From the IMG/VR virus record IMGVR_UViG_3300045988_025481, positions 1-37,707 of that record: DNA of 37,707 bases. One strand, 5' to 3'. The notes under the pieces were generated by a model, which saw only the letters and a program-made list of their open reading frames with translations, was not told the DNA's origin and did no database searches. A program made the position numbers and the translations under genes. Of this stretch, positions 209-37,677 are shown one piece after another (within the stretch, counting starts at the first letter, position 1; each line of letters begins with the position of its first letter). This stretch comes from a virus.

Positions 209-219
209 TAACATTCCTC

Positions 220-5384: not shown

Positions 5385-5856
5385 TAAGTTTATCTGCTAC
5401 TTCTAATCCTTTAGTTAATACTTTTGGTACATTGTAACCACATTGTAATAAATTCTCCATAACGCTACGAGATTCATTAATACATAGCGAAGCTAACACA
5501 AACCAACCTAGCAATGTAGACACATGGAAATCAATCCCTAGAATTTCTCCTACTTCTACTAAAAATGCACTGAATGTGAACGCAACCACAATCATAATCC
5601 AATAGCCTAGCTTTTTTAAAACACCGGTCCAACCTTTGTTGCTATTGATTTTATGAGCAATAGCCGACTTCATGCACCCTGTAATATAATCCACTACATT
5701 CATAAATAAGAAGAACGCAAATAAATACCAATGCTCGCCTAATACGTATGTTAATACGGCTACGGCAACACCACACATTGCATTAATCTTATCTAGAAAA
5801 AACATACTTCTTGCTATTTGCTTAAATCCTCCATTTTTATTTTCTATTAAATTCAC
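5341..5856 (-). CDS. holin (TcdE/phage_holin_4-type, toxin secretion/phage lysis family)
   Basis: Multi-TM ORF with DYITG...KK...INESRSVMEN motifs typical of that family. GTG 5856 sits inside the SD; ATA 5847 lies 8 nt after GGAG and is the better-placed start. Confidence 0.75.
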   Translation of the reverse strand: MNLIENKNGGFKQIARSMFFLDKINAMCGVAVAVLTYVLGEHWYLFAFFLFMNVVDYITGCMKSAIAHKINSNKGWTGVLKKLGYWIMIVVAFTFSAFLVEVGEILGIDFHVSTLLGWFVLASLCINESRSVMENLLQCGYNVPKVLTKGLEVADKLIDEEQDNDESSTLE

Positions 5857-7747: not shown

Positions 7748-10323
7748 TGAATTACACCTCCATATCCATATCTTGCTTGCATACGTAACATTCTAGCGAT
7801 TTCATCCGGACTTTGAGCTTTATTGTAGAAGTTGATAGTCTGTCCATTGTTATTCGTTGTAACACTAGGCATAATTTGGACCATATCTTTTGCTACGGCA
7901 CGAATCCACGCTTTATTCTTTTCTAAAGGAACGACTGCTTCTGCTCCATTACCTTCTAACAATCCAATTTGACCGCGTTTCAATACACCACCACGCTCTA
8001 GTTTTGGAATCTTTCCAATGCTAACTCCGGGAATCTTATTGATGATACTGATTGCACCATTAATTCCACCGATAACACCATTTACCATTCCTTTTACACT
8101 TCCAACTAATGATTGCACTGCTCCTTCAATTCCATTGAATACACCATCTACAAAGCCTTTTAAACCGCTCCATGCATTCTGTATTCCATGTAGAACATTT
8201 GAAATCTTATTTCCTACTTTATCCATCACGATTTTTACTTTTGACCACACATCGTCAAATACATTTGAAATAGTATCTTTTACACCTGCGAAGCTAGAAT
8301 CAATTATATCAATCACATTTTGTACAATATTTCCAATATTATCGAATACACCTTTGATAACATTCCATATGCTTTCAAATATGCTTGAAATTGACTGGAA
8401 TAAACCACTTGCAAATTGAATGATTGCAGATACTACCTCACTTATCTTGCCCCAAATATTCGTTGCAACAGTTACGATTAAAGACCAAATATTAGATATG
8501 ATAGATGCAATGATTTGAACAATCGGCATGATGATAGACAATATTGTAGAAATTGCACTTCCAACATATGAAATCACCATACTAATGAACGAAATGATTC
8601 CACTTACAACACTTCCAACTATCGAAAGAATAGATGTGATTACAGGAATTAATCCAACTATGTTTGAAATCACCATCTTTATAATCGCTAGGATAGGTGG
8701 ACCAACCACGCTCAGAATCTTTTGTGCTTGGTTTACGATATTTTGAATAGCTTCAATAATCTTAGCTAATATATCTTTTGCAATAGGTTCAAGTGCAATC
8801 TTCATTTTGTCGATTGCGTCTTTTACCTTATCAAAAGCAGGAGCTAACACTTCAGAAACTTGGCTTGTGATTTTTGTGATTCCACTTGTATCAATCTTAC
8901 TTAATACATTTGAAATTACATCACCAACTTTAGCAAATCCTTGTTGAATACCTTGTATCGCTACTGTAATTAGTCCAATAATACCGGAAAGAATAGGAGT
9001 AATCGCTTCGCCTATTGGAGTAAATGAGTTTAAGAATGTACGCCCTAAGCCACTTAAAGCGTTCTTTAAACCACCATTTGCAATATCTTTAACCTTTTCC
9101 ATTGCTCCTTGTACATCTTTATATTTATTCCCTACTGTCGTTAAGGACTGAATGAATCCGGCGTTGAAATCTTCTCCCATTGTACCGAAAGCCGTTGCAG
9201 ATTTATTCAATTTTTCTTGTTCATTTGTAGTCTTTGAAATATCTTCTACAATCGCATTCACAACATCTTTTTGAGTTGCTCTTCCTTCTTGCCATGCCTT
9301 AAATACATCTTGTGTTTTGGTATCAAAACTATCTAAAGCTCCTTCAATAGTTCCATCAACTAACCTTGTGGTAACTTCGTTAATTGCGTCATTTACTTTG
9401 TCAAGGTTATAAGCTCCACCGTCTAAACCATTCTGCATTAATTGGAAGTATTCTTCTGCCGAATATCCTGCTTGCTTGAATTTACCGGAGTATTCTGAAA
9501 TGTTGTCGCCTAACTCATCTGATTTGTTTAAACCATTCTGAGCACCTGTAGCCATAAGGTCGAAAGCTTCTTGAGAAGTAATTCCGAACTGCTTCATTAA
9601 TTGTTGAGCACCTCTAAGAGTTTCGTTTTCGTCCATACCGAATGTGTCTCTTAATGTCAATAAATCCTCAGTTACATTCTTTAAATCAACATCACTTATG
9701 CCTTGCATTTGTTGCTTGACTCTGCCCATCATATCGGCAACATCTGAAACATCTTCACCGAAATTATTAGACCAAACATCACGAGCAATGCTTTTAAATT
9801 TGCTCATTTCATTGCTTGAAGCACCTGTTTGAGCTTGGAATTTAGCCATAGCGTCATCTAGCTCAACGGCTTGGTTAACACCTGTCTTAATTGCTAATGC
9901 CATCCCACCGATAGCTCCTGCTACGGCAGTAACGCCTACAACACCTCCAACGCCTAAACCTGTTAAGGTTTCAGTGATTGCAGAAGCTTCCGGACTAATA
10001 TTCTGAATCTTTCCTAATAGTCCATCAAATCCACCTTGAATTGATTCTAATGCACTGTTTCCTACTTGCTTAAATACATCAAATTTAGAACCTGTTTCTT
10101 GTGTTTCTGTTTGTGTATTTCTTTGCTCTTCGTTTAAATCTTTAAGTTTATCTTTAATCTTTGGCGGTGCTTTTGAACCATCAGAACCTAGCTTATCAAT
10201 CGCTTTTGAAGTATCTTTGATAGCATTTGTGGCTTCACTTGATACAACCTTTACAGATTTAATTCCATTCTCTAGACCACTTGTATCAATCTTTGTATCA
10301 AACTTTAATGTTCCGTCTGATAT
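7744..10323 (-). CDS. tape measure protein
   Basis: ORF 7744..9903 extends 140 codons upstream in frame with no canonical start. The first codon after an in-frame TGA is ATA 10323..10321, with AAAGGAGGTG upstream. Long helical/hydrophobic repeats are typical of TMPs. Confidence 0.85.
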   Translation of the reverse strand: MSDGTLKFDTKIDTSGLENGIKSVKVVSSEATNAIKDTSKAIDKLGSDGSKAPPKIKDKLKDLNEEQRNTQTETQETGSKFDVFKQVGNSALESIQGGFDGLLGKIQNISPEASAITETLTGLGVGGVVGVTAVAGAIGGMALAIKTGVNQAVELDDAMAKFQAQTGASSNEMSKFKSIARDVWSNNFGEDVSDVADMMGRVKQQMQGISDVDLKNVTEDLLTLRDTFGMDENETLRGAQQLMKQFGITSQEAFDLMATGAQNGLNKSDELGDNISEYSGKFKQAGYSAEEYFQLMQNGLDGGAYNLDKVNDAINEVTTRLVDGTIEGALDSFDTKTQDVFKAWQEGRATQKDVVNAIVEDISKTTNEQEKLNKSATAFGTMGEDFNAGFIQSLTTVGNKYKDVQGAMEKVKDIANGGLKNALSGLGRTFLNSFTPIGEAITPILSGIIGLITVAIQGIQQGFAKVGDVISNVLSKIDTSGITKITSQVSEVLAPAFDKVKDAIDKMKIALEPIAKDILAKIIEAIQNIVNQAQKILSVVGPPILAIIKMVISNIVGLIPVITSILSIVGSVVSGIISFISMVISYVGSAISTILSIIMPIVQIIASIISNIWSLIVTVATNIWGKISEVVSAIIQFASGLFQSISSIFESIWNVIKGVFDNIGNIVQNVIDIIDSSFAGVKDTISNVFDDVWSKVKIVMDKVGNKISNVLHGIQNAWSGLKGFVDGVFNGIEGAVQSLVGSVKGMVNGVIGGINGAISIINKIPGVSIGKIPKLERGGVLKRGQIGLLEGNGAEAVVPLEKNKAWIRAVAKDMVQIMPSVTTNNNGQTINFYNKAQSPDEIARMLRMQARYGYGGVIQ

Positions 10324-11284: not shown

Positions 11285-11791
11285 TTATACTTCTGATGTA
11301 CCTTCTGTAAATGTTACTGTTCCATCTGCTACCTTTGCAGTACCGACACGAATATCGCTTGCAAAGTTAATATTGAAGTTGATTTTTGAATCGACACCGC
11401 TTAATGTGTCAAAAATCAATTTAGCGTCAACTTCCCACGCTTTATAGCCTTTAGTTTTGTCTCCGTCAAACATAAATACAAGTAAAGCTTTTGTATTTAC
11501 TTCTTCATTGTTTGGTACGGATTTCATCATTTGTTCGTAAATGTATTCAAAGTCATCTTCACCTTTAATCATAGTCAAATCCTGTGAGATTTGAGGTGAA
11601 TAACTCTTTAATGATTCTGTTGGGTTCTTATCTGCGATAAAGTCATATGTTTCAGTTTCGCTATTAAATGCAATATCTAAAGTTGTAGACTTTTTAATTC
11701 GCTTGTATCCTGTTCCCATTTGTAAGAACAATCCAATCATATACTTTTTGACTGTCTGTCCTGTATTTACTTCAGTTCCTTGAGTTGCTAT
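11285..11791 (-). CDS. major tail protein
   Basis: ORF 11285..11740 extends 17 codons to ATA 11791..11789 (AAGGAGC plus 8 nt; TAATA overlap with the upstream stop). ATG 11740 has no SD. Position supports the call. Confidence 0.65.
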   Translation of the reverse strand: MATQGTEVNTGQTVKKYMIGLFLQMGTGYKRIKKSTTLDIAFNSETETYDFIADKNPTESLKSYSPQISQDLTMIKGEDDFEYIYEQMMKSVPNNEEVNTKALLVFMFDGDKTKGYKAWEVDAKLIFDTLSGVDSKINFNINFASDIRVGTAKVADGTVTFTEGTSEV

Positions 11792-13361: not shown

Positions 13362-13463
13362 CTATTTTTCATTTTGAGGTTTAGCTTCCTCTTTTGTTTT
13401 AGGTTTTCCTTTTTTAGGCTTTTCAACTTTAGAAGGATAACCCCAACCGATTTCCTTTGCCAT
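13362..13463 (-). CDS. 33-aa lysine-rich peptide (MAKEIGWGYPSKVEKPKKGKPKTKEEAKPQNEK)
   Basis: Hand-translated. TAATG overlaps the capsid gene stop. Confidence 0.35.
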   Translation of the reverse strand: MAKEIGWGYPSKVEKPKKGKPKTKEEAKPQNEK

Positions 13464-14332
13464 TACTTAGCACTAGCAGATAAATAAATACCTGCTACCT
13501 TATTTGCGTATACATCAACGATTCCATACTTACGATATTTCAAAACATCTGAATCTGATTCAATGTTATTGCTTGCGGGAATCACATTTGAAACAGTGTG
13601 CTTATCCCATTTCATAACGGCAGGTTTATGAACAATTAAGAAGTTGATTACGTGTCCATCTTCTGCCTTTTCGTATCCACCTTCTAACTCTGTGTCTTTT
13701 CCGCTCAACAATTTGATTTTTGTATAGAAACGACTAGCAGGTACAGGAACAACTTTTGCGAATCCTTGTAAAGCTTCACGAGATTTGTAAGTGTCCAACG
13801 CCTTAACGCCATTTAATAATGTAGGTGTAGCATACAAGATACGTTGTTCGCTAGGAACTTCATCTTCATCCATTTTAGTAGTTGCCGTTAATAATGCGCT
13901 CAAGAACTCTTCTGAAGTTGTATAATCTTCGGCAACTGTTGTGATTCCTGTTGTGCCTGCAATCTTAGCGAATGTGTAAGCGTCTGCTTCCGGCGCAACC
14001 TTTGTACGCATTAATTCTGCTCCTGCCATACCGAATGCAATGTTCATTGATTCTGCGTTATCTTGTGTATCAACTGAGATTTTAGTACCTCGGTCATAGT
14101 CGAATGTAGCAGTTTTCCATTCTAACTTAACTGAGTTACCTGTATAACCACTGTTTCTATCGTAGTTTCCTAAACCTTTAACAGAAATTTGTGGATAGAT
14201 GATTTCTTTTGCGTTTGCTCCTGCTCGTACCATTGTAGCGTCTGCATTTAAATCACCTGTAACTGAAGCTAACTTATATACCTCATCCAAATTTGAGACA
14301 TACGTTTTAGCTAATGCAATTTCATTTGGTAT
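13463..14332 (-). CDS. major capsid protein
   Basis: ORF 13463..14290 extends 14 codons to ATA 14332..14330 (AAGGAGG plus 9 nt). The extension restores a typical ...Y.S.LDEVYK N-terminus. The gene follows the scaffold gene. Confidence 0.8.
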   Translation of the reverse strand: MPNEIALAKTYVSNLDEVYKLASVTGDLNADATMVRAGANAKEIIYPQISVKGLGNYDRNSGYTGNSVKLEWKTATFDYDRGTKISVDTQDNAESMNIAFGMAGAELMRTKVAPEADAYTFAKIAGTTGITTVAEDYTTSEEFLSALLTATTKMDEDEVPSEQRILYATPTLLNGVKALDTYKSREALQGFAKVVPVPASRFYTKIKLLSGKDTELEGGYEKAEDGHVINFLIVHKPAVMKWDKHTVSNVIPASNNIESDSDVLKYRKYGIVDVYANKVAGIYLSASAK

Positions 14333-17885: not shown

Positions 17886-18449
17886 CTAACCCCACATAGT
17901 ATTTAAATCATTTGTAGTAATCGCAGTTAATTCTGACTTCTTAACATACGCCGATAAATCAATGTCTGTATTACCAATCTTTTCGTATGTCTTTGTCTCT
18001 GAAAGCCAAATATACTCATCATAGATATCTTGTGTTCCATGTGAATGTGCTACCAAATAAATTACACCATTTGAACCTGTAGCAGGTAAGCTCGTTACCT
18101 TTTCATATCTAATAGATGCAATGTTTCCTACTGCCGAATTAATCAACGATTGTACTTGTGATTGCGTTTGGAATCCATTGTCATTTGTTAATTGTGATAC
18201 CTTTGTAGGCACTGTAACATCCACGGCTTTTGAGCTTGGCGTTAATTTCGTACCATTTACCTTTACAGATTCAATCACATTCACTTGAGCACCACTTGCG
18301 ATACCACTTAATTTTTGCTTTTCTTCGCTTGTGTAGTCATTTGTTGATAAGCCTTTACCACTTACGGCATCAACTTTCCCACCTAACGCCGTTTTAATCT
18401 TACTGATTAAGAGTGTCAATCCACTCTTATCTAAATATTCAATAGCTAT
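17886..18449 (-). CDS. tail-fibre-like protein
   Basis: ORF 17886..18419 extends 10 codons to ATA 18449..18447 (TAGGAGG plus 8 nt). GKGLSTNDYTSEEKQKL and SQLTNDNGFQT are typical fibre repeats. Confidence 0.6.
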   Translation of the reverse strand: MAIEYLDKSGLTLLISKIKTALGGKVDAVSGKGLSTNDYTSEEKQKLSGIASGAQVNVIESVKVNGTKLTPSSKAVDVTVPTKVSQLTNDNGFQTQSQVQSLINSAVGNIASIRYEKVTSLPATGSNGVIYLVAHSHGTQDIYDEYIWLSETKTYEKIGNTDIDLSAYVKKSELTAITTNDLNTMWG

Positions 18450-18761: not shown

Positions 18762-19057
18762 GTAATCACTTCCTTATTCAATACTCTATATACCTTTGTT
18801 GTCTTGACAGGAGAAGCAACAGCAACTCCTCCTTTTGTAATCATTCTTAATTGAATATTACAAGTACCCTCTTTGAAATTGAGCGTTTCTTCTTGACTTA
18901 ACAACACTGAAATAACATTTCCTTCAATGTCTAAATCACTTGATTCTTTTTTTAAGATATATCCGTTCTGTTCAAATACCACATAGATATTCTGCATTTC
19001 ATTTAAATCAATATCGTTTATTGTGATTTGAATTGTTGGCGTAGTTCCTTGTCTCAT
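18758..19057 (-). CDS. small structural-module protein
   Basis: ORF 18758..19078. The best start is ATG 19057 (AAGGTG plus 5 nt; ATGA overlap): MRQGTTPTIQITI... Confidence 0.5.
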   Translation of the reverse strand: MRQGTTPTIQITINDIDLNEMQNIYVVFEQNGYILKKESSDLDIEGNVISVLLSQEETLNFKEGTCNIQLRMITKGGVAVASPVKTTKVYRVLNKEVIT

Positions 19058-19863
19058 GATTTCACCTTGTAAGTCCAATCTTTGCCTACTTCACCCGACT
19101 CAACTTCATACGCCCAATCGGCTAGCATTTCATGACCGTTCTCATCTACCAGTGTTCCATCTTCTGTTAATAGAATCGTAGTGAAATGGTTATTCATAAG
19201 CATTTGTTCTACATTTGCAATTCGGTTCATTAACTTACCTGCGGTATTTGAATCCAACGTATCTTTTACGCTTGCGAACCATTCATTGAATTCATTTTCA
19301 TTTGCACTCATTTCAGATTGATTCTGCTCTTTTACTTCTTTGAATAATTCGGTCATTTGTGTAAATAAATCTAATGTTTCAACACTCTTTATGGCATTTG
19401 TAACTACTCCACAACGTGTTGAATCTAACCTTGTATCAGTGATGTTTGAGCCTTTGATTTCACTTGCGTTTCCTTCCACTGTTACCGTAGCTAATACCAT
19501 ATCATAAATAGAACCGCTTCTTGTGATTCCATCGTTGGTGTCGCTTGCTAATAAGGTAATGTTTCTATATGTGTCATTGTCATTCAATCTAAGAATAATA
19601 TTGTAGCTTTTAGTAGCGTTATTCTTTTCTAATGTGATGGTTTCGTCGTCTTTCTGCCAATAGAATGCTCCGTTAATATTTGCTCGTCCTGCCTTAACTG
19701 TAAGTGTTAAGCCTTGAGCCTTTTCAACTCTCAAATGGTCTGAACTAGAATCATCTATGAATACGCCATTTGTAAAGTAGCTTGAGAATAGCTTTCTGAA
19801 AGCGTCATATAAGACTAATCTATCACCATTTCGTGAGACAAATGGAAAATATGTAGTTGCTAT
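19054..19863 (-). CDS. fibre/baseplate-like structural protein
   Basis: ORF 19054..19734 extends 43 codons with no canonical start, to ATA 19863..19861 (GAGGGGGA plus 9 nt). The ATA overlaps the portal stop as ATAG. The FPFVSRNGDR...ITDTRLDSTRCGVV pattern resembles phage fibre proteins. Confidence 0.6.
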   Translation of the reverse strand: MATTYFPFVSRNGDRLVLYDAFRKLFSSYFTNGVFIDDSSSDHLRVEKAQGLTLTVKAGRANINGAFYWQKDDETITLEKNNATKSYNIILRLNDNDTYRNITLLASDTNDGITRSGSIYDMVLATVTVEGNASEIKGSNITDTRLDSTRCGVVTNAIKSVETLDLFTQMTELFKEVKEQNQSEMSANENEFNEWFASVKDTLDSNTAGKLMNRIANVEQMLMNNHFTTILLTEDGTLVDENGHEMLADWAYEVESGEVGKDWTYKVKS

Positions 19864-21263
19864 TCTTCGTCATCCCCCTCTCCATCATCTTGAATTTCTT
19901 CATTCAACAATTCCGTTGCTTCTTCTTCAGTGAAGCCGTATTGCTTCATGAAATACATAATCTTTAATCTTGGAATATCAAATGTTAATGCGTCATTTCT
20001 TAACGCTTGTGCCGTGCTTTGCTTATCCTCGATATATGTATCATCATAATCAATAGCAATATCTAATGAATTGATATTAAGCTTTCTGCCTTGTGTCAAT
20101 TCGTAGAAGTATGCAATAGCTTGAATAATGTCTTGAATATATGCAGTAGATTCTTTACGTTGTGAGTTTACTTCCTTCATAGCGTCTTGATTCTCACCAA
20201 TATATTCTGTAGCCGTCACAATTCTTCCACTTTCAAAGGTGTATTTCTTTGTACCAAATCCAAACATCATTGATAAGATACTTAATGCAGTTTCTAGTGA
20301 TTGCACAACTTCCGCCGTTCTTACTGTTGGATTGTATTCTTGCCATAAAGCTTTTTCTTCCGGAAGCTTGTCTCTACCTAACTGAACAAATATCTTTTTC
20401 ATTTGTGGATTCATCTTAATATTTCCATCCTTGTCTTTCTGCATTAATGCTTCATTCACAAGAACAATTTTATCAGACTTCAACAAATCACGATTCCACA
20501 TTGTCATTGTTAAATCAATTGTTTTCAAAGGAGCAATTGCACTCCAAATCTTCGGCAAGCCGTACCCTTGCATTTGTAAGTTGTTGACCTTTGCATTTCT
20601 CATAATTGCAAACGGCTTAACCACATCTAATTGAACTATCTGAGCACGCTCTTTTATTTCTTCGCCTGTATCTTTAAAGTAATGTGTTTCTGCAATATAT
20701 CTTTCGTCTTGTCCTTTTAAGAACATGACCATCACATATACTTTTTTCAACTTCTCATAATTTACTCCAACGAAAGCTACTTCCACAATTTCATCATTGA
20801 TAACAGTTAATGGAAGGATATTCATTGAATCACAATAGTTGATTCTTATTTCCCCTCCACTGAATGTACCATCTTCGTAAATCTCGGCATTTGATACCGT
20901 TACATAAGCTCCTACTGTACCGTTTGCAGACATTTGCTCAACTTGTTTCCTATACATTACATCAAACCTATTCTTCGTTAGAATGTCTGAAATAATATCA
21001 TTTGTTGTACTGTCCTCTGTTGCGTTTATATCTAGGATTTCAATAAGGTTTGCGTCATCCTCGCATAAACGCTTTGCAAAGTCTGTTTTATCTAGCGTGT
21101 ATTCCTCGTTGTTCAACGTGTATGCCGTATGAAATTCTGTTTCGGTATTCGTGTACCACTTATTACACAATTCAATAATCTCAATTGCGTTTGTGTCTAC
21201 ATAATACCCTCTGTCGTTTAGGTAATTCTGAAACCACGGTCTACGTGTGTTAGATGTTTCTAT
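19860..21263 (-). CDS. portal protein (SPP1 Gp6-like)
   Basis: ORF 19860..21170 extends 31 codons to ATA 21263..21261 (AAGGAGG plus 6 nt), two codons after an in-frame TAA. Its size and position after TerL support the call. Confidence 0.8.
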   Translation of the reverse strand: METSNTRRPWFQNYLNDRGYYVDTNAIEIIELCNKWYTNTETEFHTAYTLNNEEYTLDKTDFAKRLCEDDANLIEILDINATEDSTTNDIISDILTKNRFDVMYRKQVEQMSANGTVGAYVTVSNAEIYEDGTFSGGEIRINYCDSMNILPLTVINDEIVEVAFVGVNYEKLKKVYVMVMFLKGQDERYIAETHYFKDTGEEIKERAQIVQLDVVKPFAIMRNAKVNNLQMQGYGLPKIWSAIAPLKTIDLTMTMWNRDLLKSDKIVLVNEALMQKDKDGNIKMNPQMKKIFVQLGRDKLPEEKALWQEYNPTVRTAEVVQSLETALSILSMMFGFGTKKYTFESGRIVTATEYIGENQDAMKEVNSQRKESTAYIQDIIQAIAYFYELTQGRKLNINSLDIAIDYDDTYIEDKQSTAQALRNDALTFDIPRLKIMYFMKQYGFTEEEATELLNEEIQDDGEGDDEE

Positions 21264-21266
21264 TTC

Positions 21267-22604
21267 TTACCTCCTTAAATCTATATATCCACTATGGGTT
21301 ATAAATGTGTAGCAGAACGAATCCCAATCATCATTGATATTGTTTACGTTCTCATCTTTCGGAATGTCTTTCTTTTCATCCCATACCAATTCGCTCAATG
21401 CATTTATTAAGTTCTTACAATGTTCTTCTATCTTCAATCTACCTGTAACAAGTAAGCTATCAACTGTTATAGGACGGTCCGTTAGCTCATTCTTCTTAAC
21501 CGGTGCAATTATACTACCGTCCAATCCTTCGGCGTAGAAATAAGCTCTAAGCGTGTTTATGAGTGTGTTAGAAGCACTGTCCGGAAATATCCATTCTACA
21601 TATCCGTAACATTCAATACAACGCTTATAGAATCTTACAAATGCTTTGCAGAACTTTGTTGCGTATATGGAATTAGATTTAGCCATGTCTCCTTCATCAA
21701 GTGCCCACATATAATCCCAATCATTTGTAAACCCTGTTAAGTGCCATGAATATTTCGAGCCATTGTCTCCAAAATCAACGCCAATAATTAAATGACTGAA
21801 CCTTTTCCCTTCTTCCTTCATCTTTTCTTTTAGACTCTGATATTTGAATAGGTAAGGCTTGCAGTTATTGGCAAAATAAGGAAAGACTAGACCTTCGGCA
21901 ACCATTCTTTCCCCTAAAATATCTCGCTTGTACCATACTGAATTCTTGTCATATTTGTTTTGGATTTCTTCGATTCTTTCTTGGCTCATTGTAGCATTGT
22001 CAAAGATGTTGAAGTGCTCATATCTGTACCAATCTAACCCCATAAATTTATCTATGTAATTCTTATAGATGTCTGCGTTTGGGTTTGATGGGTTTAAATC
22101 CCATAATGTAAATGGATGTACACTTGCAATCTGTCTTGCCATCGCTACCTTGATAAAGCTTGTTCTAGAATCATCACAATCGTAATGCTCATTTATTTCG
22201 GTCGCTATCCATCCACCATATGAGTTACCTAATATGCTCTTATATGAATCGGACTTTCCACCGCCTGTAAATATAACTATCTTTTCGCCTGTCTTTGTTT
22301 GGACAAATAGTGCTTCGTTCGATTTGTATTTACCCCAACGACACCGCCCACGAAAGATATGTTCTAAGCCGAAACCATTGCAATCGCCTATGTTTAATTT
22401 CGCATTTGGTAAGCTTGACCCACTCGCTAAATGTATTTTATCTTCGCATGTTTCTAAATACATTGAAAAGATTATGCAGTGGTCAATCGTTTTGCCACTT
22501 CGTACCGCTCCTTCTGCTACACTTTGTTTGTAATTTAGGGCGGTCTTAATATAATTCTTATGTTTATCTGAAAATTTCCCCCAAGGAATCGTTCTAGTCA
22601 TCAT
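21267..22604 (-). CDS. terL: terminase large subunit
   Basis: 445-aa ORF with Walker A EGAVRSGKT, PBSX/Terminase_3-like. The ATG overlaps the TerS stop. Confidence 0.9.
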   Translation of the reverse strand: MMTRTIPWGKFSDKHKNYIKTALNYKQSVAEGAVRSGKTIDHCIIFSMYLETCEDKIHLASGSSLPNAKLNIGDCNGFGLEHIFRGRCRWGKYKSNEALFVQTKTGEKIVIFTGGGKSDSYKSILGNSYGGWIATEINEHYDCDDSRTSFIKVAMARQIASVHPFTLWDLNPSNPNADIYKNYIDKFMGLDWYRYEHFNIFDNATMSQERIEEIQNKYDKNSVWYKRDILGERMVAEGLVFPYFANNCKPYLFKYQSLKEKMKEEGKRFSHLIIGVDFGDNGSKYSWHLTGFTNDWDYMWALDEGDMAKSNSIYATKFCKAFVRFYKRCIECYGYVEWIFPDSASNTLINTLRAYFYAEGLDGSIIAPVKKNELTDRPITVDSLLVTGRLKIEEHCKNLINALSELVWDEKKDIPKDENVNNINDDWDSFCYTFITHSGYIDLRR

Positions 22605-22942
22605 TTTAATAAATCTGCCAAAGGTGTTAAGTCCTCAATCTCATGTGTCATTGTCTGCTCAACCTTTTCGCTCTGTCCAAGCATTTGTTTACCTAACCAA
22701 ATAAGCATGGTCGTATTCCCTTTTGACGCTTTGTCAAATTGCATACGTCTTAAACTTCTTTTTGAGTGGCTTATACCTTTTTTATATGTCTGACAAAACT
22801 TTCTATTTCTTAATAATGTTCTTACCGAACATCCTAGGAAATCTGCAATTTCTTCTTGAGTACATCCAATAGAAGCAAGCTTTTCAACTGCTTCATAATC
22901 AATCTTTATTCTTGGGCGTCCTCCTGCGTGTTTCTCTGCTAT
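22601..22942 (-). CDS. terS: terminase small subunit (HTH)
   Basis: Not in the ORF track. The frame is open from TAG 22957 to TGA 22601 and encodes (M)AEKHAGGRPRIKIDYEAVEKLASIGCTQEEIADFLGCSVRTL... The first ATG is 66 codons in. ATA 22942..22940 lies 6 nt after a G7 run. Confidence 0.7.
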   Translation of the reverse strand: MAEKHAGGRPRIKIDYEAVEKLASIGCTQEEIADFLGCSVRTLLRNRKFCQTYKKGISHSKRSLRRMQFDKASKGNTTMLIWLGKQMLGQSEKVEQTMTHEIEDLTPLADLLK

Positions 22943-23094
22943 TTTAATCCCCCCCTATAACAATCATATTGATTCAATTGCTTTTTAAGCCTTTGTAATC
23001 TTTTTCTTAAATCTCTTTTTCTATATTCTGATGTCGTGTTTTCTAATTCTTCTTCAACGCTTTTCATTTGGCGTAAATGTTCTTCTCTAGACAT
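22939..23094 (-). CDS. 51-aa coiled-coil ORF ending at the G7 tract
   Basis: Hand-translated: MSREEHLRQMKSVEEELENTTSEYRKRDLRKRLQRLKKQLNQYDCYRGGLK. It overlaps the radical SAM stop. It could fuse to TerS by a -1 shift on the G7 run. Confidence 0.35.
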   Translation of the reverse strand: MSREEHLRQMKSVEEELENTTSEYRKRDLRKRLQRLKKQLNQYDCYRGGLK

Positions 23095-24394
23095 GTCTTG
23101 CTTCTTCTGTTTCAAGTTCTGTAATCTCCTCTGTTCTTTTTAAGAATGTTACTGAATTATCATATTCGTAAATGATGTCATTGTTTTCATCAAATCCTAC
23201 AGGCTTTAGAACCTTTTCAAAAATCTTATAAGGTGATTGTCCTGCTTTTGGTGAATTCCATAAATAATGAAGATAATCTTTCATTGTCATTCCTTTGAAT
23301 TTTGCTCTATTCTCTGATGAATTAGTGTTGAACCCAATAGCTTTATTAAATTGAAAATCTAAGAAATACATATCCTTTTCAATATCTTTCCAATGTACTC
23401 TTCCATGTTTCTTTGCAATTTGTAAAGCGCCACTAAAATTTCCTCTTGAGTAATCCCAATTCTTGTCTAATGCGCAACAACAACAATTATTTGAGCATTC
23501 TTTAAAGTGTGCGTCGGATACATAGAATCGCATACCTAATTCATCACATAGCTCTTTCATCTTTTGAATGTATTTAGCCTTTACTTTTCTGTTAAGTCTT
23601 AAATATCCACTTCCATTTGAATGTTTTCTATAGAAATCTACAATATCAAATCCTGCACATTCACTAATCACATCATAATGCTCCTTAGCTTGTTTAATAG
23701 AACGCATTTCTAAGCAAAAGAACTCCGTAGTAACTGCCGTTGCTCCTGCCTTTTTGGCTTCTCTAATTAAATCTAGATAGGTTTTATCTGATACTCCTAC
23801 AATAAATGGACGCAATCTTAAAGTTGCACCACCTTTAGATAGTTCAGTATATTTTTTCATTGCTTCAAGTCTTTTTCTTGGACTTGGCACACCTACTTCG
23901 ATTTTTCTTGCGTCCTCTTCATCTAGCGTGATGATACTAAACTTAACATTCCAATTGTCTGCGCCTTTGAACAATTCTTGATATTTAGGGTCATTAAATA
24001 CCCATGCCGATTTCGTACTAAAACAAATAGGATAGTTAATAGATTTCAAATACTTAAGCATTTCATAGGTTTTGCCATATTTCTTTTCGTATCCGTCGAA
24101 TTGGTCTGATAATCCACCATATTGAATAGGACGTCTGTCTTTAATGTATTTATAGAATTGTGATTTTGTATCTTCTCCACTGAAAATCTTTTTGCATTTC
24201 TCAACATTGATACATTTCACATCTTTATTAAGATATGCTTCTTTACTTGCACCAATACCTCTTTGATATTGGCTAAAACAATAAACGCACCCAAATGAAC
24301 AATTGGAATATGTATCAAATGTCACCGGTAATGAGCAATCTGCGATTTCTCCTGTCCATCTCGGTGATTGATATGTCTCACTGATTTTATTCAC
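23087..24394 (-). CDS. radical SAM enzyme (SplB/COG1533-like), substrate unknown
   Basis: 435-aa ORF with the CX3CX2C motif CSFGCVYC near the N-terminus and a second Cys cluster CSNNCCCC. GTG start after GGAGGATATAAG. Confidence 0.75.
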   Translation of the reverse strand: MNKISETYQSPRWTGEIADCSLPVTFDTYSNCSFGCVYCFSQYQRGIGASKEAYLNKDVKCINVEKCKKIFSGEDTKSQFYKYIKDRRPIQYGGLSDQFDGYEKKYGKTYEMLKYLKSINYPICFSTKSAWVFNDPKYQELFKGADNWNVKFSIITLDEEDARKIEVGVPSPRKRLEAMKKYTELSKGGATLRLRPFIVGVSDKTYLDLIREAKKAGATAVTTEFFCLEMRSIKQAKEHYDVISECAGFDIVDFYRKHSNGSGYLRLNRKVKAKYIQKMKELCDELGMRFYVSDAHFKECSNNCCCCALDKNWDYSRGNFSGALQIAKKHGRVHWKDIEKDMYFLDFQFNKAIGFNTNSSENRAKFKGMTMKDYLHYLWNSPKAGQSPYKIFEKVLKPVGFDENNDIIYEYDNSVTFLKRTEEITELETEEARHV

Positions 24395-24395
24395 C

Positions 24396-25157
24396 TTATA
24401 TCCTCCATTTTCTTTTCAACAATACTGTTCTATCTTTTTTTGTTACCATATCCGGATATTTCTTTACTAGGCGTCTAAGCCATAGTTCTTGTTCTCCTCT
24501 TTGGTATCTGTCATACATTCCGCCTTTTTCCTTTCCCATTAAAGATTTATTTGGCACAATGTTATTTGCTCTAGCTATGATATACCCTTGCCTAATCATT
24601 CTTAGATTCAATTCATAATCCTCTAACATATCCCATTTCTCATCAAATTTGATTTCTTCACTTTTAATAACAAAACACAATCCACCTTGTACGAGTGTAT
24701 TGAATGAATATGTTTCACCTTTCTTAACATAGCTAGCTATATTCATATTATTGGTTGTGGGTAGACATCCCATGAAGTGAATATTGTTCTTTTGCATAAA
24801 TGAGAATACCTCATTAAATGTCTTATCCAATTCAGTGATTTTTTTCTGCGCTCCACATTTATTTCCTTGCTTTTCTTCCCATTTCCTAAAATCTCTGATG
24901 TCATCATCTAGTAAGATGATTTTTGCCCCATTTTCAAAATAATTTAGAATGTTATTTCTATTCGAAGCTACGTTATTTCCACGCCTAGTAATGATTTGAG
25001 CTTGACTTCCTAATGTTTCAACATAAGTTTTGAAATCATTTGAATCATTTAAGCTAATAACAATTCTTTCATCTTCAATTCCACATTCTTTTAGTGCGTA
25101 ATACGTTTTACATTTTGGTCTATGGTAACTAGCTATTGCATAATAGATGTTATTCAT
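24396..25157 (-). CDS. GT-A-type glycosyltransferase-like protein
   Basis: 253-aa ORF with a Rossmann-like N-terminus and the DXD motif ILLDDDIRD. Confidence 0.5.
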   Translation of the reverse strand: MNNIYYAIASYHRPKCKTYYALKECGIEDERIVISLNDSNDFKTYVETLGSQAQIITRRGNNVASNRNNILNYFENGAKIILLDDDIRDFRKWEEKQGNKCGAQKKITELDKTFNEVFSFMQKNNIHFMGCLPTTNNMNIASYVKKGETYSFNTLVQGGLCFVIKSEEIKFDEKWDMLEDYELNLRMIRQGYIIARANNIVPNKSLMGKEKGGMYDRYQRGEQELWLRRLVKKYPDMVTKKDRTVLLKRKWRI

Positions 25158-25731
25158 GCATTAATTCCTCGATGTCGTAGCACACTTTCAATTCAGTTAC
25201 CTGCAATAGTTTCTCTAAGAATAGTTGTTCTTCCTCTGTTTCATATGTAATGATTACACGTTGCTTTTTTAGCATATCTTCTGAATGTTCGCTAAATGCG
25301 TCCATAAGCTCGTTGTCATATCCTTCTGCATCCATGTCCTCAGTTAATGCACTAATTTCAAAATCGCCGAATCCGAATTCTCTCATATCGATTCCGTCAA
25401 TTTCTTCAAGCTCTTCCATTTCTGTTTTTAATGCGTCTAAATCCCAAGACGCTTTTTCTGCCGTTTTATTATCTGCAATTCTAAATGCTTTTACTTGCTC
25501 ATCTGTTAAATCATCTGCAACCACGCAAGGAACAGTTTCTAAGCCTAATTCTTGACTAGCTTTATATCGTGTATGACCTGCAACAATCACTCCATTTTTA
25601 TCAATAACAATAGGCACTTTGAAGCCGAATTCCTCAATAGAATTTTTAACAAATTTCACTGCTCCATCATTGATTCTAGGATTATTCTCATAAGGTTTTA
25701 GCTCATTTAATCTTTTTTCAACAATATTCAT
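25150..25731 (-). CDS. ParB N-terminal (ParB/Srx) domain protein
   Basis: 193-aa ORF. L.PYENNPR...IVIDKNGVIVAGHTRYKA...VPCVV is the ParBc motif. The C-terminus is acidic and there is no methyltransferase domain. Confidence 0.75.
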   Translation of the reverse strand: MNIVEKRLNELKPYENNPRINDGAVKFVKNSIEEFGFKVPIVIDKNGVIVAGHTRYKASQELGLETVPCVVADDLTDEQVKAFRIADNKTAEKASWDLDALKTEMEELEEIDGIDMREFGFGDFEISALTEDMDAEGYDNELMDAFSEHSEDMLKKQRVIITYETEEEQLFLEKLLQVTELKVCYDIEELMHE

Positions 25732-25749
25732 ATTCTCCTCCTTTTAAGC

Positions 25750-25995
25750 TCATAGAGCGTCATTTACATTTAGACAAGTATTTGTATTCTTTATGTATTC
25801 ATCAACGTATAACTCCTTTTTATCGCCGTTATACGTTACTTCGTAATAGTTATCTGTGCTTTGAGCACTAATCAATGCTTTATTGTTTTGAAGCACTTTA
25901 ACCATCCATACAACGAACATTTCACTGATTGCAATATTTGGATTCACTTGAAATACTGCATTCATTGCTAATTCTTGAAATTCTTTTGAACCCAT
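25750..25995 (-). CDS. hypothetical protein; first late ORF
   Basis: 81-aa ORF with AAGGAGGAGAAT-ATG. Confidence 0.55.
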   Translation of the reverse strand: MGSKEFQELAMNAVFQVNPNIAISEMFVVWMVKVLQNNKALISAQSTDNYYEVTYNGDKKELYVDEYIKNTNTCLNVNDAL

Positions 25996-26010: not shown

Positions 26011-26038
26011 ATTAAAAGAACCGAGACAAACGCTCGGT
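26011..26038 (-). terminator. terminator-like hairpin 20 nt upstream of the first late ORF
   Basis: Minus strand reads ACCGAG-CGTTTGT-CTCGGT followed by TCTTTT. Confidence 0.45.
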
Positions 26039-26120
26039 AATATATCAAAGCCTAATTGTATGCCATTGTTGGTATTTAATATCTAATTTTGGAAGGACTT
26101 ACTGATAGGCTTTGTAAACA

Positions 26121-26196
26121 TGGTTGCAGGAGAAGGAATTGCACCATTCGACCTCTAGCTAATAAGACTAGTGAGCTACTACTGCTCTATCCTGCT
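26121..26196 (-). tRNA. initiator-like tRNA with anticodon UAU (predicted to read AUA); CCA encoded
   Basis: Hand-folded cloverleaf. Acceptor stem G2-A7/U66-C71 with A1xA72 unpaired; U8; D stem GAGC/GCUC (A11:U24). Anticodon stem CUAGU/GCUAG with loop CUUAUUA. Variable loop AGGUC. T stem GAA(U)GG/CCUUC with loop UGCAAUU. The 3' end is A73-CCA. Confidence 0.6.
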
Positions 26197-26212
26197 AAAA
26201 CAATTATTACAT

Positions 26213-26236
26213 GAAAAAATGCTCACATTGTGAGCA
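26213..26236 (-). terminator. rho-independent terminator ending the early operon
   Basis: Minus strand reads TGCTCACA-A-TGTGAGCA followed by T6. It overlaps the stop codon of gene 26223..26549. Confidence 0.65.
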
Positions 26237-26549
26237 CTTTCTTCAAGTTCTTATTTATTTTTCTTGGAATCTCTTCTCGTGCATAACCTACAATATTAGA
26301 TGTTTTTTCTGCACTGAATCCCTTTATATATCTATACTCAATCATGGCTCTAGTCGTATCATCAAGTTGGCTTAATTTGTCTTTTACATAATTCATTCTT
26401 CTTGCATAATCTGCATGAGCCAAGAATAGCTCGGCTTTTAAAGGATAAATTGCTTCATCCCTTTGTAGCTCTGCTATCTTTTGCTCATAGTATGTATAAG
26501 ATTGACATTCGCATAGAAAATGTTTTTTAACTTCTTCATATGTACTCAT
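26223..26549 (-). CDS. late-gene transcriptional activator (RinA/ArpU/DUF1492-like, sigma region-4-type HTH)
   Basis: 108-aa ORF. IEYRYIKGFSAEKTSNIVGYAREEIPRKINKNLKK resembles a region-4 HTH. It is the last early gene before the packaging genes. Confidence 0.55.
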   Translation of the reverse strand: MSTYEEVKKHFLCECQSYTYYEQKIAELQRDEAIYPLKAELFLAHADYARRMNYVKDKLSQLDDTTRAMIEYRYIKGFSAEKTSNIVGYAREEIPRKINKNLKKVLTM

Positions 26550-26749
26550 GATGTATACATCCTCATTAATCTATTTTCTAATTCGCCAACTTTATTTTTT
26601 AATCTATTAATCTCGTGTGTTTGATTATGAATTGTTGCATTTCTTTCTTTTAAAGTCTGATTAAGCTCAATGTTCGCCCTTCCTAATATGTTATTCTTAG
26701 AAATTAACTCTTTAATCCTTTCTTCATAATTCATTTCTATTAGTGCCAC
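26546..26749 (-). CDS. small coiled-coil protein
   Basis: 67-aa ORF, translationally coupled to its neighbours. Confidence 0.5.
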   Translation of the reverse strand: MALIEMNYEERIKELISKNNILGRANIELNQTLKERNATIHNQTHEINRLKNKVGELENRLMRMYTS

Positions 26750-30583: not shown

Positions 30584-31324
30584 CTACGCTCTTAATATTT
30601 CTTTCCTTACTCGTTCCATTTCTTTATGTACATCTGCATACGATTGATTGCTTTCTTGTGCATAGAATTTAGAATCAAGTTTTACAGGATTGTTCTTATT
30701 TCTTTTTGTCCATTCATCATGTACCCACTTCTGAATCACTAGTGAATGGTTCTTGTATTTTTTTCCACTTGTTTCAATGTACTCATCTAATATCTTTATA
30801 TGTTCATCTAATGAATCACCATATAAATCTAATAGGTGTGTGTGTTCTTTATCTGTAAGTAACACGTGTGAATATTCTCCGTATTTATGTTTGTGCGTAC
30901 ATACATTAATATTATTTTTATTTAATTCATTTTTAGTTGAATTATTATTTAATTTAATAGGGTTTAGATTTTCTAATTTTAGATTTTCTATTTTTAGAAT
31001 TTCTATTTTTAGATTTTCTAAATTCCGAGGATTGTCTATTAATGTATATTGCCAATCAACAATTAAATTACCTTCTCTAATAGGTTCACGAATTAAATAT
31101 CCTTTATTCATTAATTCTTTTAACCCGGAACGAACACTTGATATTCCATCTGTAGCTAATGCTTTAATACTGTTTTCCTTAAAGTCCCAATTATCCGGAA
31201 GGCTTAACATTTGGCAAAACAAGCCTTTTGCTTTATAGGATAGTTCTCTATCGTGAAATATTTCATTGTTAACGTGTGTATACCCACTTTGTAGGCTTTT
31301 CTTTAGTTCTGCTATTCTAATCAC
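30584..31324 (-). CDS. replication initiator / replisome organizer (wHTH N-terminus, DnaD-like C-terminus)
   Basis: 246-aa ORF. The N-terminal wHTH has the SVRSGLKELMNKGYLIR pattern. Iterons are embedded mid-gene. Confidence 0.65.
   Translation of the reverse strand: MIRIAELKKSLQSGYTHVNNEIFHDRELSYKAKGLFCQMLSLPDNWDFKENSIKALATDGISSVRSGLKELMNKGYLIREPIREGNLIVDWQYTLIDNPRNLENLKIEILKIENLKLENLNPIKLNNNSTKNELNKNNINVCTHKHKYGEYSHVLLTDKEHTHLLDLYGDSLDEHIKILDEYIETSGKKYKNHSLVIQKWVHDEWTKRNKNNPVKLDSKFYAQESNQSYADVHKEMERVRKEILRA
30963..31022. repeat. four tandem 15-bp iterons (TTTAGATTTTCTAAT-like); putative origin
   Basis: Units are at 30963, 30978, 30993 and 31008, next to a very AT-rich stretch (30905..30960). 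They are translated as ENLKIEILKIENLKLENL. Confidence 0.7.
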
Positions 31325-36579: not shown

Positions 36580-37677
36580 CTAAAATTTGTCTTTCTCCAT
36601 AAATTGTACAATACCTTTATCGGCTTGAGGTAGCCAATGAGCGTATACTGAAAGCACTGTATCAAGGTTATCACCTAATCTTTTTGCAATGTCATATACT
36701 GAGAAATTCACTGTTCCATTTGTAACCATATTATTAATCATATAAGAAGCGCATGAGTGCCTTAAATCATGTATTCTAATATAAGGTATTTGCTCATTCC
36801 GTTGTAGCTTGATATTCGTTCTCTTAATCGTTTCGTTCATTTCTTTTCTAACTGAGCTTCGATAAAAAGGAACTGTCATACCGAATATATAGTCATTATC
36901 ATTTGCGTGCATATTATCTTTAAAAGCTTTATATTCATCAGATAGAAACTGTGGCATAGTAATTAATCTATAACTGTTGCTTGTCTTTGGTGTAGTCGCT
37001 TTTCTTAACGTGTCTGCCCATGTTTTTTGTATGTTGATGGTATTGTTTATTAAATCAATATCTTTCCATTGTAGAGCCAATGTTTCGCCTATTCTCATGC
37101 CCATGTAGAATTGATTCATAAATAATAAATGATATACAGGTTTATTTTCATTTGCTATAAACTTATTAAATTGCTCTACTGTCCAATACATCATGTCTTT
37201 CTTTTTTTTGTTTGGGTCTTTCTTCAAATCAATTTTATTGCATGGATTCACTTGAATATATCCTTGTCTTACTGCATAGTTAAGAACTGCTCTGAATTTC
37301 GTATAATAGTTAAGTACTGAATCAAATAACATTGATTTCATTAATCTATTAATAACCTTTTCTATATTGTTTGCAGTAAGCTTTTTAATTTCGCATTCTC
37401 CTAGCTCATCTTCCCATACTTTCAATATTGCTCTTTGTGTCAAGTAAGTACTTTCCTTAATTCTCTTTTCACTGTATACTTGATATTGATAAGATAGTTG
37501 ATTAAATGTGATGGTTGCGTTTGGTTCTTTTAGATTCTCTTTGAATAGAATCTCGGCTTTTATAGCGTCCTTCTTTTTTTCGAAGCCACGCTTCTTATAT
37601 TGCTTGGTTTTACCATTCAATTTATATGAACCATAATACATCCATTTTCCTGTTGCTTCATCTTTTTTGACTGCCAT
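36580..37677 (-). CDS. int: tyrosine recombinase / phage integrase
   Basis: ORF 36580..37707. The best start is ATG 37677 after AAAGAGGTG. MAVKKDEATGKWMYYGSYK is an arm-binding N-terminus. Catalytic motifs are GMRIGETLAL, HDLRHS and VLSVYAHW. Confidence 0.9.
   Translation of the reverse strand: MAVKKDEATGKWMYYGSYKLNGKTKQYKKRGFEKKKDAIKAEILFKENLKEPNATITFNQLSYQYQVYSEKRIKESTYLTQRAILKVWEDELGECEIKKLTANNIEKVINRLMKSMLFDSVLNYYTKFRAVLNYAVRQGYIQVNPCNKIDLKKDPNKKKKDMMYWTVEQFNKFIANENKPVYHLLFMNQFYMGMRIGETLALQWKDIDLINNTINIQKTWADTLRKATTPKTSNSYRLITMPQFLSDEYKAFKDNMHANDNDYIFGMTVPFYRSSVRKEMNETIKRTNIKLQRNEQIPYIRIHDLRHSCASYMINNMVTNGTVNFSVYDIAKRLGDNLDTVLSVYAHWLPQADKGIVQFMEKDKF

Follow-up and report, generated by a model that had tools for sequence, protein, structure and literature searches.

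The viral DNA analysed here is a stretch of 37,707 nucleotides (IMG/VR record IMGVR_UViG_3300045988_025481, positions 1 to 37,707; the whole stretch is referred to below as the window) and corresponds to a temperate siphovirus-type prophage. It carries a 76-nt tRNA gene on the minus strand (26196–26121; AGCAGGAUAGAGCAGUAGUAGCUCACUAGUCUUAUUAGCUAGAGGUCGAAUGGUGCAAUUCCUUCUCCUGCAACCA) whose predicted product is initiator-derived and initiator-like, yet is not a tRNAfMet in the strict sense because the anticodon is UAU, not CAU, in every copy of the family to which it belongs. Judged from the sequences, this phage-encoded initiator tRNA very probably decodes AUA start codons. At least 11, and probably about 14, of the approximately 58 phage genes would begin at AUA, including those for the small terminase subunit (TerS), portal, head proteins, tape measure protein (TMP), distal tail protein (Dit), holin and endolysin. 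More generally, it seems likely that temperate gut phages run a private initiation channel, in which a non-CAU initiator tRNA (UAU; CAG, and probably CAC) with U at position 37 reads an A-NNN signal at a large share of the genes.

The tRNA gene and its predicted fold

The gene was read directly from the minus strand and compared with Rfam using Infernal cmscan; ARAGORN was also run on the window. The first-pass annotation, made from the sequence alone, had described a minus-strand cloverleaf of 76 nt with an encoded CCA and had recommended a covariance-model search. That search gives a match above threshold to the RF00005 tRNA model at 26196–26124 (minus strand), spanning the full model (positions 1–71) with 48.0 bits against a gathering score of 29 (E = 2.1e-7), and the CCA follows at 26123–26121. 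It is the sole cmscan match in the window, and the A1×A72 opposition is the sole non-standard pair flagged. Identification of the gene is based on this match together with the covariation within the family described below.

The initiator-type features first proposed for this RNA can all be read in the sequence. Position 1:72 is unpaired, the acceptor stem contains G2:C71 and C3:G70 as well as A4:U69 and A7:U66, the discriminator is A73, and the 3′ end is GCAACCA; the D stem contains A11:U24 and the variable loop is AGGUC. G2:C71, C3:G70 and A73 are the acceptor determinants of the formyltransferase in E. coli. Alignment to E. coli metZ bears out the resemblance, noted at first pass, of the D arm, variable loop and GCAACCA end to tRNAfMet, and the 4:69 and 7:66 pairs differ from metZ by compensatory changes, as had been suggested.

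The departures from a standard initiator that had been described are also present. The anticodon loop is CUUAUUA, with the UAU anticodon at 26164–26162 and U37 at 26161. The anticodon stem reads C:G/U:A/A:U/G:C/U:G; in place of three consecutive G:C pairs (29:41, 30:40, 31:39) the window tRNA has A:U/G:C/U:G, and G30:C40 alone is kept. The T arm contains an extra, bulged U in the 5′ strand of its stem and a T loop UGCAAUU with G at position 55. In E. coli, the middle G30:C40 pair is the essential and sufficient part of the 3-G:C motif, and natural au/GC/gu anticodon-stem variants occur in mycoplasmas and alpha-proteobacteria (PMC5389676); reduced motifs in some Mollicute initiators had been mentioned at first pass.

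Suppressor-tRNA recoding, with a stop-codon-complementary anticodon and in-frame stops, was considered and set aside: the anticodon is UAU and the open reading frames are open under translation table 11.

Relationship to the host initiator tRNA

Lysogen contigs place the prophage between an sseB-like gene and the CCA-adding enzyme gene (cca) of an Erysipelotrichaceae bacterium; the flanking TldD protein, which belongs to a 12,964-member cluster, is 68–73% identical to Erysipelotrichaceae, Floccifex and Faecalicoccus proteins. A host tRNA cluster in the prophage flank (contig L086, 117–750, minus strand) includes genes for tRNAfMet (196–272, minus strand; C×A at 1:72, A11:U24, GGG/CCC, anticodon CAU), for an elongator Met tRNA, and for a CAU tRNA (392–468) that is called Ile2-like by resemblance only. 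Seven host tRNAs were compared. The phage tRNAs are identical to host tRNAfMet at 58–64 of 77 positions, against 42–55 for the six other host tRNAs; the Ile2-like tRNA (42–49 of 77) is among the lowest of the seven, and the elongator Met tRNA gives 49–54. The alignment to host tRNAfMet, tRNAMet and tRNAIle that was proposed at first pass thus places the phage tRNA nearest to host tRNAfMet.

Comparison with E. coli gives a similar picture for the sister variants, which match metZ at 55–59 of 77 positions and five elongators at 42–50, whereas the global identity of the window variant alone to E. coli tRNAs does not discriminate, owing to drift in its anticodon stem. C11:G24 is present in the elongators compared from the host and from E. 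coli, against A11:U24 in the phage tRNA. Orthology to an elongator tRNAIle(UAU) with a paired 1:72, the observation that was said to count against an initiator-type RNA, is not seen: positions 1 and 72 do not pair, 11:24 is A:U, and U occupies position 37.

Features shared with the host Erysipelotrichaceae tRNAfMet include the unpaired 1:72, G2:C71, C3:G70, A7:U66, U8-A9, the D stem GAGC/GCUC with A11:U24, G30:C40, AGGUC, the T-stem 3′ strand CCUUC and the GCAACCA end. The phage tRNA differs from it in having UAU (not CAU), U37 (not A37), U31:G39 (not G31:C39), A1 (not C1) and a short D loop of 7 nt; the window version further differs in A29:U41, the bulged T stem and A18/G55. It is also phage-encoded and apparently serves AUA rather than AUG starts.

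A species-wide genome scan (D arm, TAT anticodon, AGGTC) found no prophage copy and returned five sporadic tRNAfMet-like sequences with A37 or C37. These TAT sequences (L036–L040) lie in genomes or metagenome-assembled genomes of Thermoleophilia, Terracidiphilus, Collinsella, Dehalococcoidia and Roseobacter. ARAGORN calls three of them tRNA-Ile and does not call the Dehalococcoidia copy; the Thermoleophilia copy is clearly truncated, and the acceptor stem of the Collinsella copy is broken; this copy is found ~1.8 kb away from another tRNA gene with a CAT anticodon.

A tRNA family in human-gut phages

Pattern scans of IMG/VR and metagenomes, supplemented with contigs fetched through neighbouring proteins, yielded approximately 75 copies of the tRNA in human-gut phage contigs, in four versions. 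The window type, found at many loci, has A×A at 1:72, the T-stem bulge, T loop UGCAAUU or UGCAAAU, and D loop AGUAGUA. A second version from the same phage group (L076) has A×A with a canonical elbow (G18G19, T loop UUCAAUU, no bulge), and the remaining two have a normal T arm and either C×A (L019/L045) or G×A (L053) at 1:72. Common to all four are the CUUAUUA loop, A11:U24, G30:C40, a Y31:G39 pair (U:G; C:G in two copies) and GCAACCA. A looser viral scan added one chance match only (L041).

Position 1:72 is never paired among 73 copies (A×A in 70, C×A in two and G×A in one), and because position 1 can be A, C or G, and never U, opposite an invariant A72, the mismatch is taken to be maintained, not accidental. 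Among the 10 distinct family sequences, G2:C71, C3:G70 and A73 are invariant, as are A11:U24 (10/10) and G30:C40. In these sequences 99.5% of the cells pair and six pairs show double changes; none of 500 shuffles reaches the observed level, and slid controls are 38–56% paired with at most one double-changed pair. The compensatory double changes fall in three stems. The anticodon stem of the window type occurs either as CUAGU/GCUAG or as UCGGU/GCCGA, the two differing by three double compensatory changes, and the latter comes close to the stem of tRNAfMet; some sister variants have the anticodon-stem pairs G:C/G:C/U:G. The elbow also varies, with A18 and G55 in the window type (26196–26121) versus G18 and U55 in L076 (10354–10428), L045 and L053, and the alternation looks like a correlated change of the D-loop/T-loop contact.

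ATA start codons

The coding strand was scanned for Shine-Dalgarno (SD) matches of at least 6 nt that lie at a spacing of 4–11 from a codon followed by at least 60 open codons. Such a match is present at 21 of 226 ATG sites (9.3%) and at 11 of 138 ATA sites (8.0%), against about 4% or less for every other codon. A stricter scan, which adds an in-frame stop within 12 codons upstream, leaves 23 ATG, 12 ATA and 3 GTG sites, the rest being codons adjacent to those starts. The corresponding counts of ATA sites with SD in two phages without the tRNA are 2/275 (phiCD111, with the same 33% GC) and 3/278 (MT835524; Fisher p = 2.5e-5).

In at least 11 genes, an SD-ATA closely follows an in-frame stop, and protein homology reaches further upstream than the first ATG, GTG or TTG. 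The ATA sites are the most 5′ of the plausible starts of the genes listed below. Each ATA is kept in 10–50 relatives, despite variation in the spacers and second codons. On related contigs, automatic gene calling leaves gaps that match the 5′ ends of ATA-start genes (e.g. 440 nt before the TMP gene), the called and ATA-start lengths being 436 and 467 aa for the portal, 719 and 859 aa for TMP, and 222 and 290 aa for Dit. Across contigs L071–L101 the calls consistently shorten ATA-start genes, including the endolysin (551 aa), and leave unexplained intergenic gaps.

The genes with predicted ATA starts all lie on the minus strand. The TerS gene (22601–22942; phrog_309 match) starts at ATA 22942–22940 in the context AGGGGGGG-ATTAAA-ATA GCA, with ATA in 30/30 relatives; it replaces ATA 22909 as the TerS start, a position at which relatives have ATA and GTA in a 15:15 ratio. 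The portal gene (19860–21263) starts at ATA 21263–21261, with the SD AAGGAGGT at a spacing of 5, an in-frame TAA two codons upstream and A at −1. Its phrog_533 match begins at residue 22, the first canonical start (TTG) is residue 32, and ATA is present in 46/46 relatives. A head protein gene (19054–19863) starts at ATA 19863–19861, conserved in 50/50 relatives, and has a phrog_1220 match from residue 4 of the open frame and its first TTG at residue 46. The portal stop and the head protein start overlap as ATAG (19860–19863), the ATA analogue of the ATGA coupling overlap.

A 187-aa structural-region gene (17886–18449) has ATA 18449–18447, for which relatives have ATA in 23 instances and ATG in three; this ATA is interpreted as a start codon because a swap to ATG fits a start, not an internal Ile codon. 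The major head protein gene (13463–14332) starts at ATA 14332–14330, which is retained in 16/16 relatives though the second codon varies; residues 3–288 correspond to positions 3–294 of the 297-position phrog_422 profile, and the first canonical TTG is residue 15.

Among the tail genes, a 168-aa tail-region gene (11285–11791; phrog_3099) starts at ATA 11791–11789, with the SD AAGGAG at a spacing of 8 and an in-frame stop two codons upstream; the profile match begins at residue 10, the first ATG is residue 18, and ATA is conserved in 11/11 relatives. The TMP gene (7744–10323) starts at ATA 10323–10321, with the SD AAGGAGGT and TGA immediately upstream. Profile matches begin at residues 7–36 and the first in-frame ATG is 140 codons later (residue 141). 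The Dit gene (6875–7747) starts at ATA 7747–7745, preceded by GGAGGTG at a spacing of 7, with a phrog_33 match from residue 35 and the first canonical GTG at residue 69. In the lysis genes, the holin (5341–5847) starts at ATA 5847–5845, the sole upstream GTG lying inside the SD, and the endolysin (988–2730) starts at ATA 2730–2728 with AAGGAGGT at a spacing of 8; endolysin N-terminal-domain matches begin at residue 3 and the first ATG is residue 30. For TMP, Dit, holin and endolysin, ATA is present in 10/10 relatives each.

Candidate ATA starts are also found in the early region. A 64-aa coiled-coil gene just upstream of a sigma-like gene (26546–26740) has ATA 26740–26738 with the SD AGGAGGTG at a spacing of 6, and A-ATA-G is invariant there in 50/50 relatives while the spacer occurs in at least eight forms. 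A second early-region gene (30584–31315) has a probable ATA start at 31315–31313 (AGGGGGTG-ATTAGA-ATA GCA), conserved in 12/12, and weaker early candidates at 31694 and 34617 are proposed from conservation in 29/29 and 21/21. For a further candidate, ATA 12581, an overlapping ATG at 12653 is a possible alternative start.

Position 37 and the base preceding the start codon

U at position 37 is very unusual for a tRNA, and elongators that read ANN codons carry a modified A37. Every accepted ATA start is preceded by A; in the curated set of starts, the base at −1 is A at 10/10 ATA starts versus 24/41 ATG starts, and A at −1 is likewise found at the ATA starts of the L045 and L053 phages and at the CTG starts of the CAG-tRNA phages described below. 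U37 probably pairs with this A, such that a four-base signal A-AUA would be read by UAU-U. A37U and A37G mutants of E. coli tRNAfMet show position 37 pairing with the −1 base of the mRNA (PMC10018350). At +4, G is present at 7/10 ATA starts versus 9/41 ATG starts, and the second codon is mostly GAA, GAC, GAT or GCA; this G possibly reflects start context or N-terminal processing.

Anticodons and start codons in other phage lineages

The divergent members of the UAU family have similarly placed ATA codons. In the L045 phage (C×A tRNA), the SD-ATA starts of the portal gene and the major head protein gene come immediately behind stop codons, and in the L053 phage (G×A tRNA) so does that of the portal gene. 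Homology begins at residue 2 in the L045 major head protein and at residues 11 and 15 in the two portals.

A scan for initiator-type tRNAs with other anticodons revealed a separate gut-phage group that encodes an initiator-like tRNA with C×A, A11:U24, U31:G39, anticodon CAG and U37. In these phages, SD-CTG with A at −1 follows in-frame stops for the TerS, TerL, portal, major head and major tail protein genes, and homology begins before the first canonical start is reached. Contigs L108 and L115 carry initiator-like tRNAs with CAC and U37. The viral contigs with CAG or CAC initiator-like tRNAs (unpaired 1:72, A11:U24, U37) comprise L105, L106, L110, L111 (tRNA at 5863, plus strand), L114, L118, L119 and L113 together with L108 and L115. 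A scan for initiator-like tRNAs with AAU or GAU anticodons gave no matches. The anticodon of the phage tRNA and the unusual start codon thus change together across lineages, which is difficult to account for unless the tRNA reads those starts.

Proposed mechanism

In the proposed mechanism, the phage tRNA is descended from a host-lineage tRNAfMet whose anticodon was changed from CAU to UAU. The gene would be transcribed as its own short unit between two terminator-like hairpins, and the unpaired 1:72, G2:C71, C3:G70, A11:U24, A73 and G30:C40 would route the tRNA to initiation, not elongation. It would then pair in the ribosomal P site with AUA codons behind strong SD sequences, with U37:A(−1) as a fourth base pair that strengthens the all-A:U codon–anticodon helix. 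C34 is of great importance to methionyl-tRNA synthetase (MetRS), and tRNAfMet can acquire other identities when its anticodon is exchanged; charging with (f)Ile is on these grounds a reasonable guess, with residual charging by MetRS (Met) as the alternative. UAU, CAG and CAC are each one step from CAU, which fits gradual co-evolution through near-cognate starts, possibly with residual MetRS recognition. Initiation factor IF3 is reported to accept none but Watson-Crick pairs at codon positions 1 and 2 (PMC10158994).

Candidate pay-offs for the phage are that its translation is insulated from the pool of host initiators or from defences directed at that pool, or that expression of the lysis and structural genes is limited when the tRNA is absent. 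ATA starts are assigned to ~10 of ~33 late genes, including all key morphogenesis and lysis genes, and to ~4 early genes, and because of the latter a pure late timer is unlikely. Location of the tRNA gene at the early/late boundary does not by itself imply gating of late genes for the same reason, and a late-gene gate as the sole purpose was considered and is similarly weakened.

Counter-evidence and alternative explanations

Several observations weigh against initiation at AUA by the phage tRNA. MetRS should reject U34, and several E. coli identity elements for isoleucyl-tRNA synthetase (t6A37, C4:G69, U12:A23 and C29:G41) are absent. AUA is also a weak near-cognate start for ordinary tRNAfMet, which may allow a degree of initiation in the absence of the phage tRNA. 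Part of the per-site conservation of ATA is inherited, because the window phage's relatives are closely related. The four candidate ATA starts in early genes lie upstream of the tRNA gene, which weakens simple late-gene timing. Within the tRNA itself, the elbow of the window version is irregular (A18, G55 and a bulge in the T stem) and one of three anticodon-stem G:C pairs is left, and the ARAGORN check suggested at first pass went the other way from the covariance model, with no tRNA called in the window. The gene is nonetheless kept as a tRNA because of the Infernal match, the family covariation, and the ARAGORN calls on sister copies, which are labelled tRNA-Ile(tat). Finally, the phage contains 151 internal ATA codons, or 18.9% of its Ile codons, against 8.7% in five host genes; from codon usage, the tRNA may bring an added elongator benefit beside initiation.

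This codon usage and the tRNA-Ile(tat) label are what would be expected of an elongator tRNAIle(UAU) that supplements internal AUA decoding, with the SD-ATA sites either read by host tRNAfMet or not real starts. Such a role is nevertheless improbable. A single A72U or N1U change would make the 1:72 pair that an elongator needs, yet the mismatch is kept; the D stem has A11:U24 instead of the C11:G24 of host and E. coli elongators, and U37 takes the place of a modified A37. Of the host tRNAs, tRNAfMet is the closest in sequence and the Ile2-like tRNA the most distant, and this Ile2-like CAU tRNA is already available in the host. Prophages of lactobacilli often carry tRNAIle(CAU/UAU) genes, which have been read as AUA supply (PMC10688831), but for the phage described here that explanation leaves the SD-ATA enrichment, the A at −1 and the CAG/CTG parallel unaccounted for.

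It is very unlikely that the tRNA acts instead as an anti-defence or decoy RNA, with a loop altered so as to evade or sequester a host nuclease or toxin directed at tRNAfMet, and with no decoding of AUA starts. Enteric VapC cuts tRNAfMet near the anticodon-loop/31:39 region, and the changes in the phage tRNA cluster in the loop and at 31:39, near that site. It has also been proposed that some phage tRNAs avoid the anticodon nucleases of the host through changes in the anticodon loop (PMC10264068). However, a UAU anticodon cannot take over from CAU at AUG starts, and translation would therefore not be rescued by escape alone; the CUUAUUA loop is invariant across four divergent versions and matches the start codon and −1 base actually used by the phage genes, and the second family pairs CAG with CTG starts. 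The decoy and AUA-initiator ideas can coexist, because an orthogonal initiator would also be defence-proof.

A decaying host tRNAfMet pseudogene, with the ATA sites as weak near-cognate starts for host tRNAfMet (e.g. through translational coupling), could account for the irregular T arm with G55, the single remaining G:C pair, the lack of an ARAGORN call for the window copy, and the occurrence of the five sporadic TAT sequences (one truncated, one with a broken acceptor stem) in unrelated bacteria, but has next to no likelihood. An abundant phage group maintains ~75 copies, three of whose stems show compensatory double changes, the elbow changes look correlated, and the anticodon loop is invariant. 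In addition, essential genes (those for portal, major head protein and TMP) would have to rely on a very inefficient start, as ATA is with tRNAfMet in E. coli.

Genomic organization and flanking elements

The first-pass annotation placed the tRNA gene at the early/late boundary, and the gene content agrees, with a sigma-like regulator and SSB upstream and packaging and structural genes downstream. The integrase gene is at 36580–37677 (minus strand), and the early genes encode ERF, NinB-like and RusA-like proteins, dUTPase and SSB. The tRNA is preceded by a gene for a small protein with weak similarity to sigma-70 region 4 (26223–26549) and is followed in order by DUF6275, ParB_N, TET-associated glycosyltransferase, distant radical-SAM protein, TerS, TerL, portal, head, tail, holin and endolysin genes. 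The first four of these form a cargo block between the tRNA and terS (23087–25995, minus strand) that varies among relatives, L075 having a QueT-family protein there instead. Its glycosyltransferase matches PF20691 and phrog_842, and its radical-SAM protein (435 aa) is distantly PA0069/Rv2578c-like; the block may be a DNA-modification or repair module.

Two terminator-like sites were found, against 0.1 expected, and they bracket the tRNA gene. The first is a hairpin upstream of the tRNA (26214–26236, minus strand) with the structure TGCTCAC-AAT-GTGAGCA followed by TTTTTT, which runs over the stop codon of the sigma-like gene and divides the tRNA from early transcription; the scan reported its stem on the plus strand, and the T run is on the minus strand. 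The second (ACCGAGCGTTTGTCTCGGT followed by TCTTTT; 26014–26038, minus strand) lies directly ahead of the DUF6275 gene and ~85 nt downstream of the tRNA. Between the first hairpin and the tRNA is the extended −10-like element suspected at first pass (TGTAATAAT, TG-n-AATAAT; 26203–26211, minus strand), which ends 6 nt upstream of A1. TG-N-(A/G)ATAAT is kept in most of the 73 tRNA copies while the adjoining bases vary, and a simple sigma-70 scan found no −35 match for a tRNA promoter. TGTAATAAT is a predicted promoter element from which the transcript could begin at or next to tRNA position 1. The same scan reports an unconvincing promoter-like site inside the trailer (26066–26039).

The 3′ trailer contains a long-range inverted repeat read in the sequence (AAAGCCTA...TAGGCTTT; 26047–26113, minus strand). 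The ACAAAGCC...GGCTTT repeat is conserved in the window type and in the divergent L019/L045 type, in which an AAAGCC...GGCTTT hairpin is also located 3′ of the tRNA. It could act as a processing or termination structure, or represent a second small RNA.

The phage is common in human-gut metagenomes, a neighbouring 108-aa protein being indexed in 242 blocks of the collection. The integration gap between the sseB-like gene and cca is at 5085–5245 in L081 and 5102–5144 in L086, with the host tRNA cluster, including tRNAfMet, ~5 kb away. The phage tRNA was also considered as an attP remnant and rejected, as the integrase/attachment end is ~10 kb away and the prophage lies between sseB and cca, not in a tRNA gene.

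Relation to known systems and implications

AUA is read in other systems by different means. tRNAIle2 (CAU to lysidine) and the tRNAIle(UAU) of Lactobacillaceae have the same UAU anticodon or target AUA, and Mycoplasma mobile tRNAIle(UAU) reads AUA; automatic tools label the phage gene likewise as tRNA-Ile(tat). AUA-reading elongators have a paired 1:72, Y11:R24 and a modified A37, and the phage tRNA departs from them in each respect. The animal mitochondrial tRNAMet with f5C34 reads both AUA and AUG in initiation; AUA starts are thus used there as well, but by one wobbling CAU tRNA that serves initiation and elongation, as opposed to a dedicated UAU initiator. Suppressor-tRNA recoding in gut phages is similar in that a virus tRNA alters codon reading and gene callers mis-annotate the genes concerned (PMC10879173, PMC11210395); there, stop codons are reassigned in elongation by elongator-type tRNAs, whereas here a sense codon is used as a start by an initiator-type tRNA.

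The closest principle is found in engineered initiators. Changing only the anticodon of tRNAfMet is reported to lead to initiation at complementary start codons (10.1101/524249, 10.1101/2021.05.25.445580, 10.1101/2024.07.29.605542, PMC11744186), and the amber initiator, i-tRNA(AAC) and amber-dependent biocontained phages described in them are likewise orthogonal to AUG. The phage system is set apart from these laboratory constructs by being natural, virus-borne and coupled to approximately a quarter of the viral genes, and by its use of the near-cognate sense codon AUA with a complementary 37/−1 pair. The literature searched, whose coverage excludes most subscription journals, yielded no naturally occurring initiator tRNA, of phage or bacterial origin, that is devoted to a start codon other than AUG, and the wider class of phage alternative initiators is apparently undescribed.

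If true, this would be the first natural orthogonal initiator tRNA/start-codon system and a new deviation from the genetic code, located at the start codon, and the proteins concerned may begin with a residue other than Met. The pairs UAU/AUA and CAG/CUG, each with U37 and A at −1, are orthogonal pairs of interest for synthetic biology and phage biocontainment. The phages also provide a natural test case for the extent of the 3-G:C rule, the role of the 37/−1 pair, and the amino acids able to start a bacterial protein. Standard gene callers shorten or miss the 5′ ends of approximately a quarter of the genes in these abundant gut phages. If the mechanism is confirmed, the structural and lysis genes could be poorly expressible without the tRNA, and translation of phage genes could go on even if the pool of host initiators came under attack or was shut off; one small RNA gene would then suffice for a virus to rewrite the identity of start codons, as is the case for stop codons.

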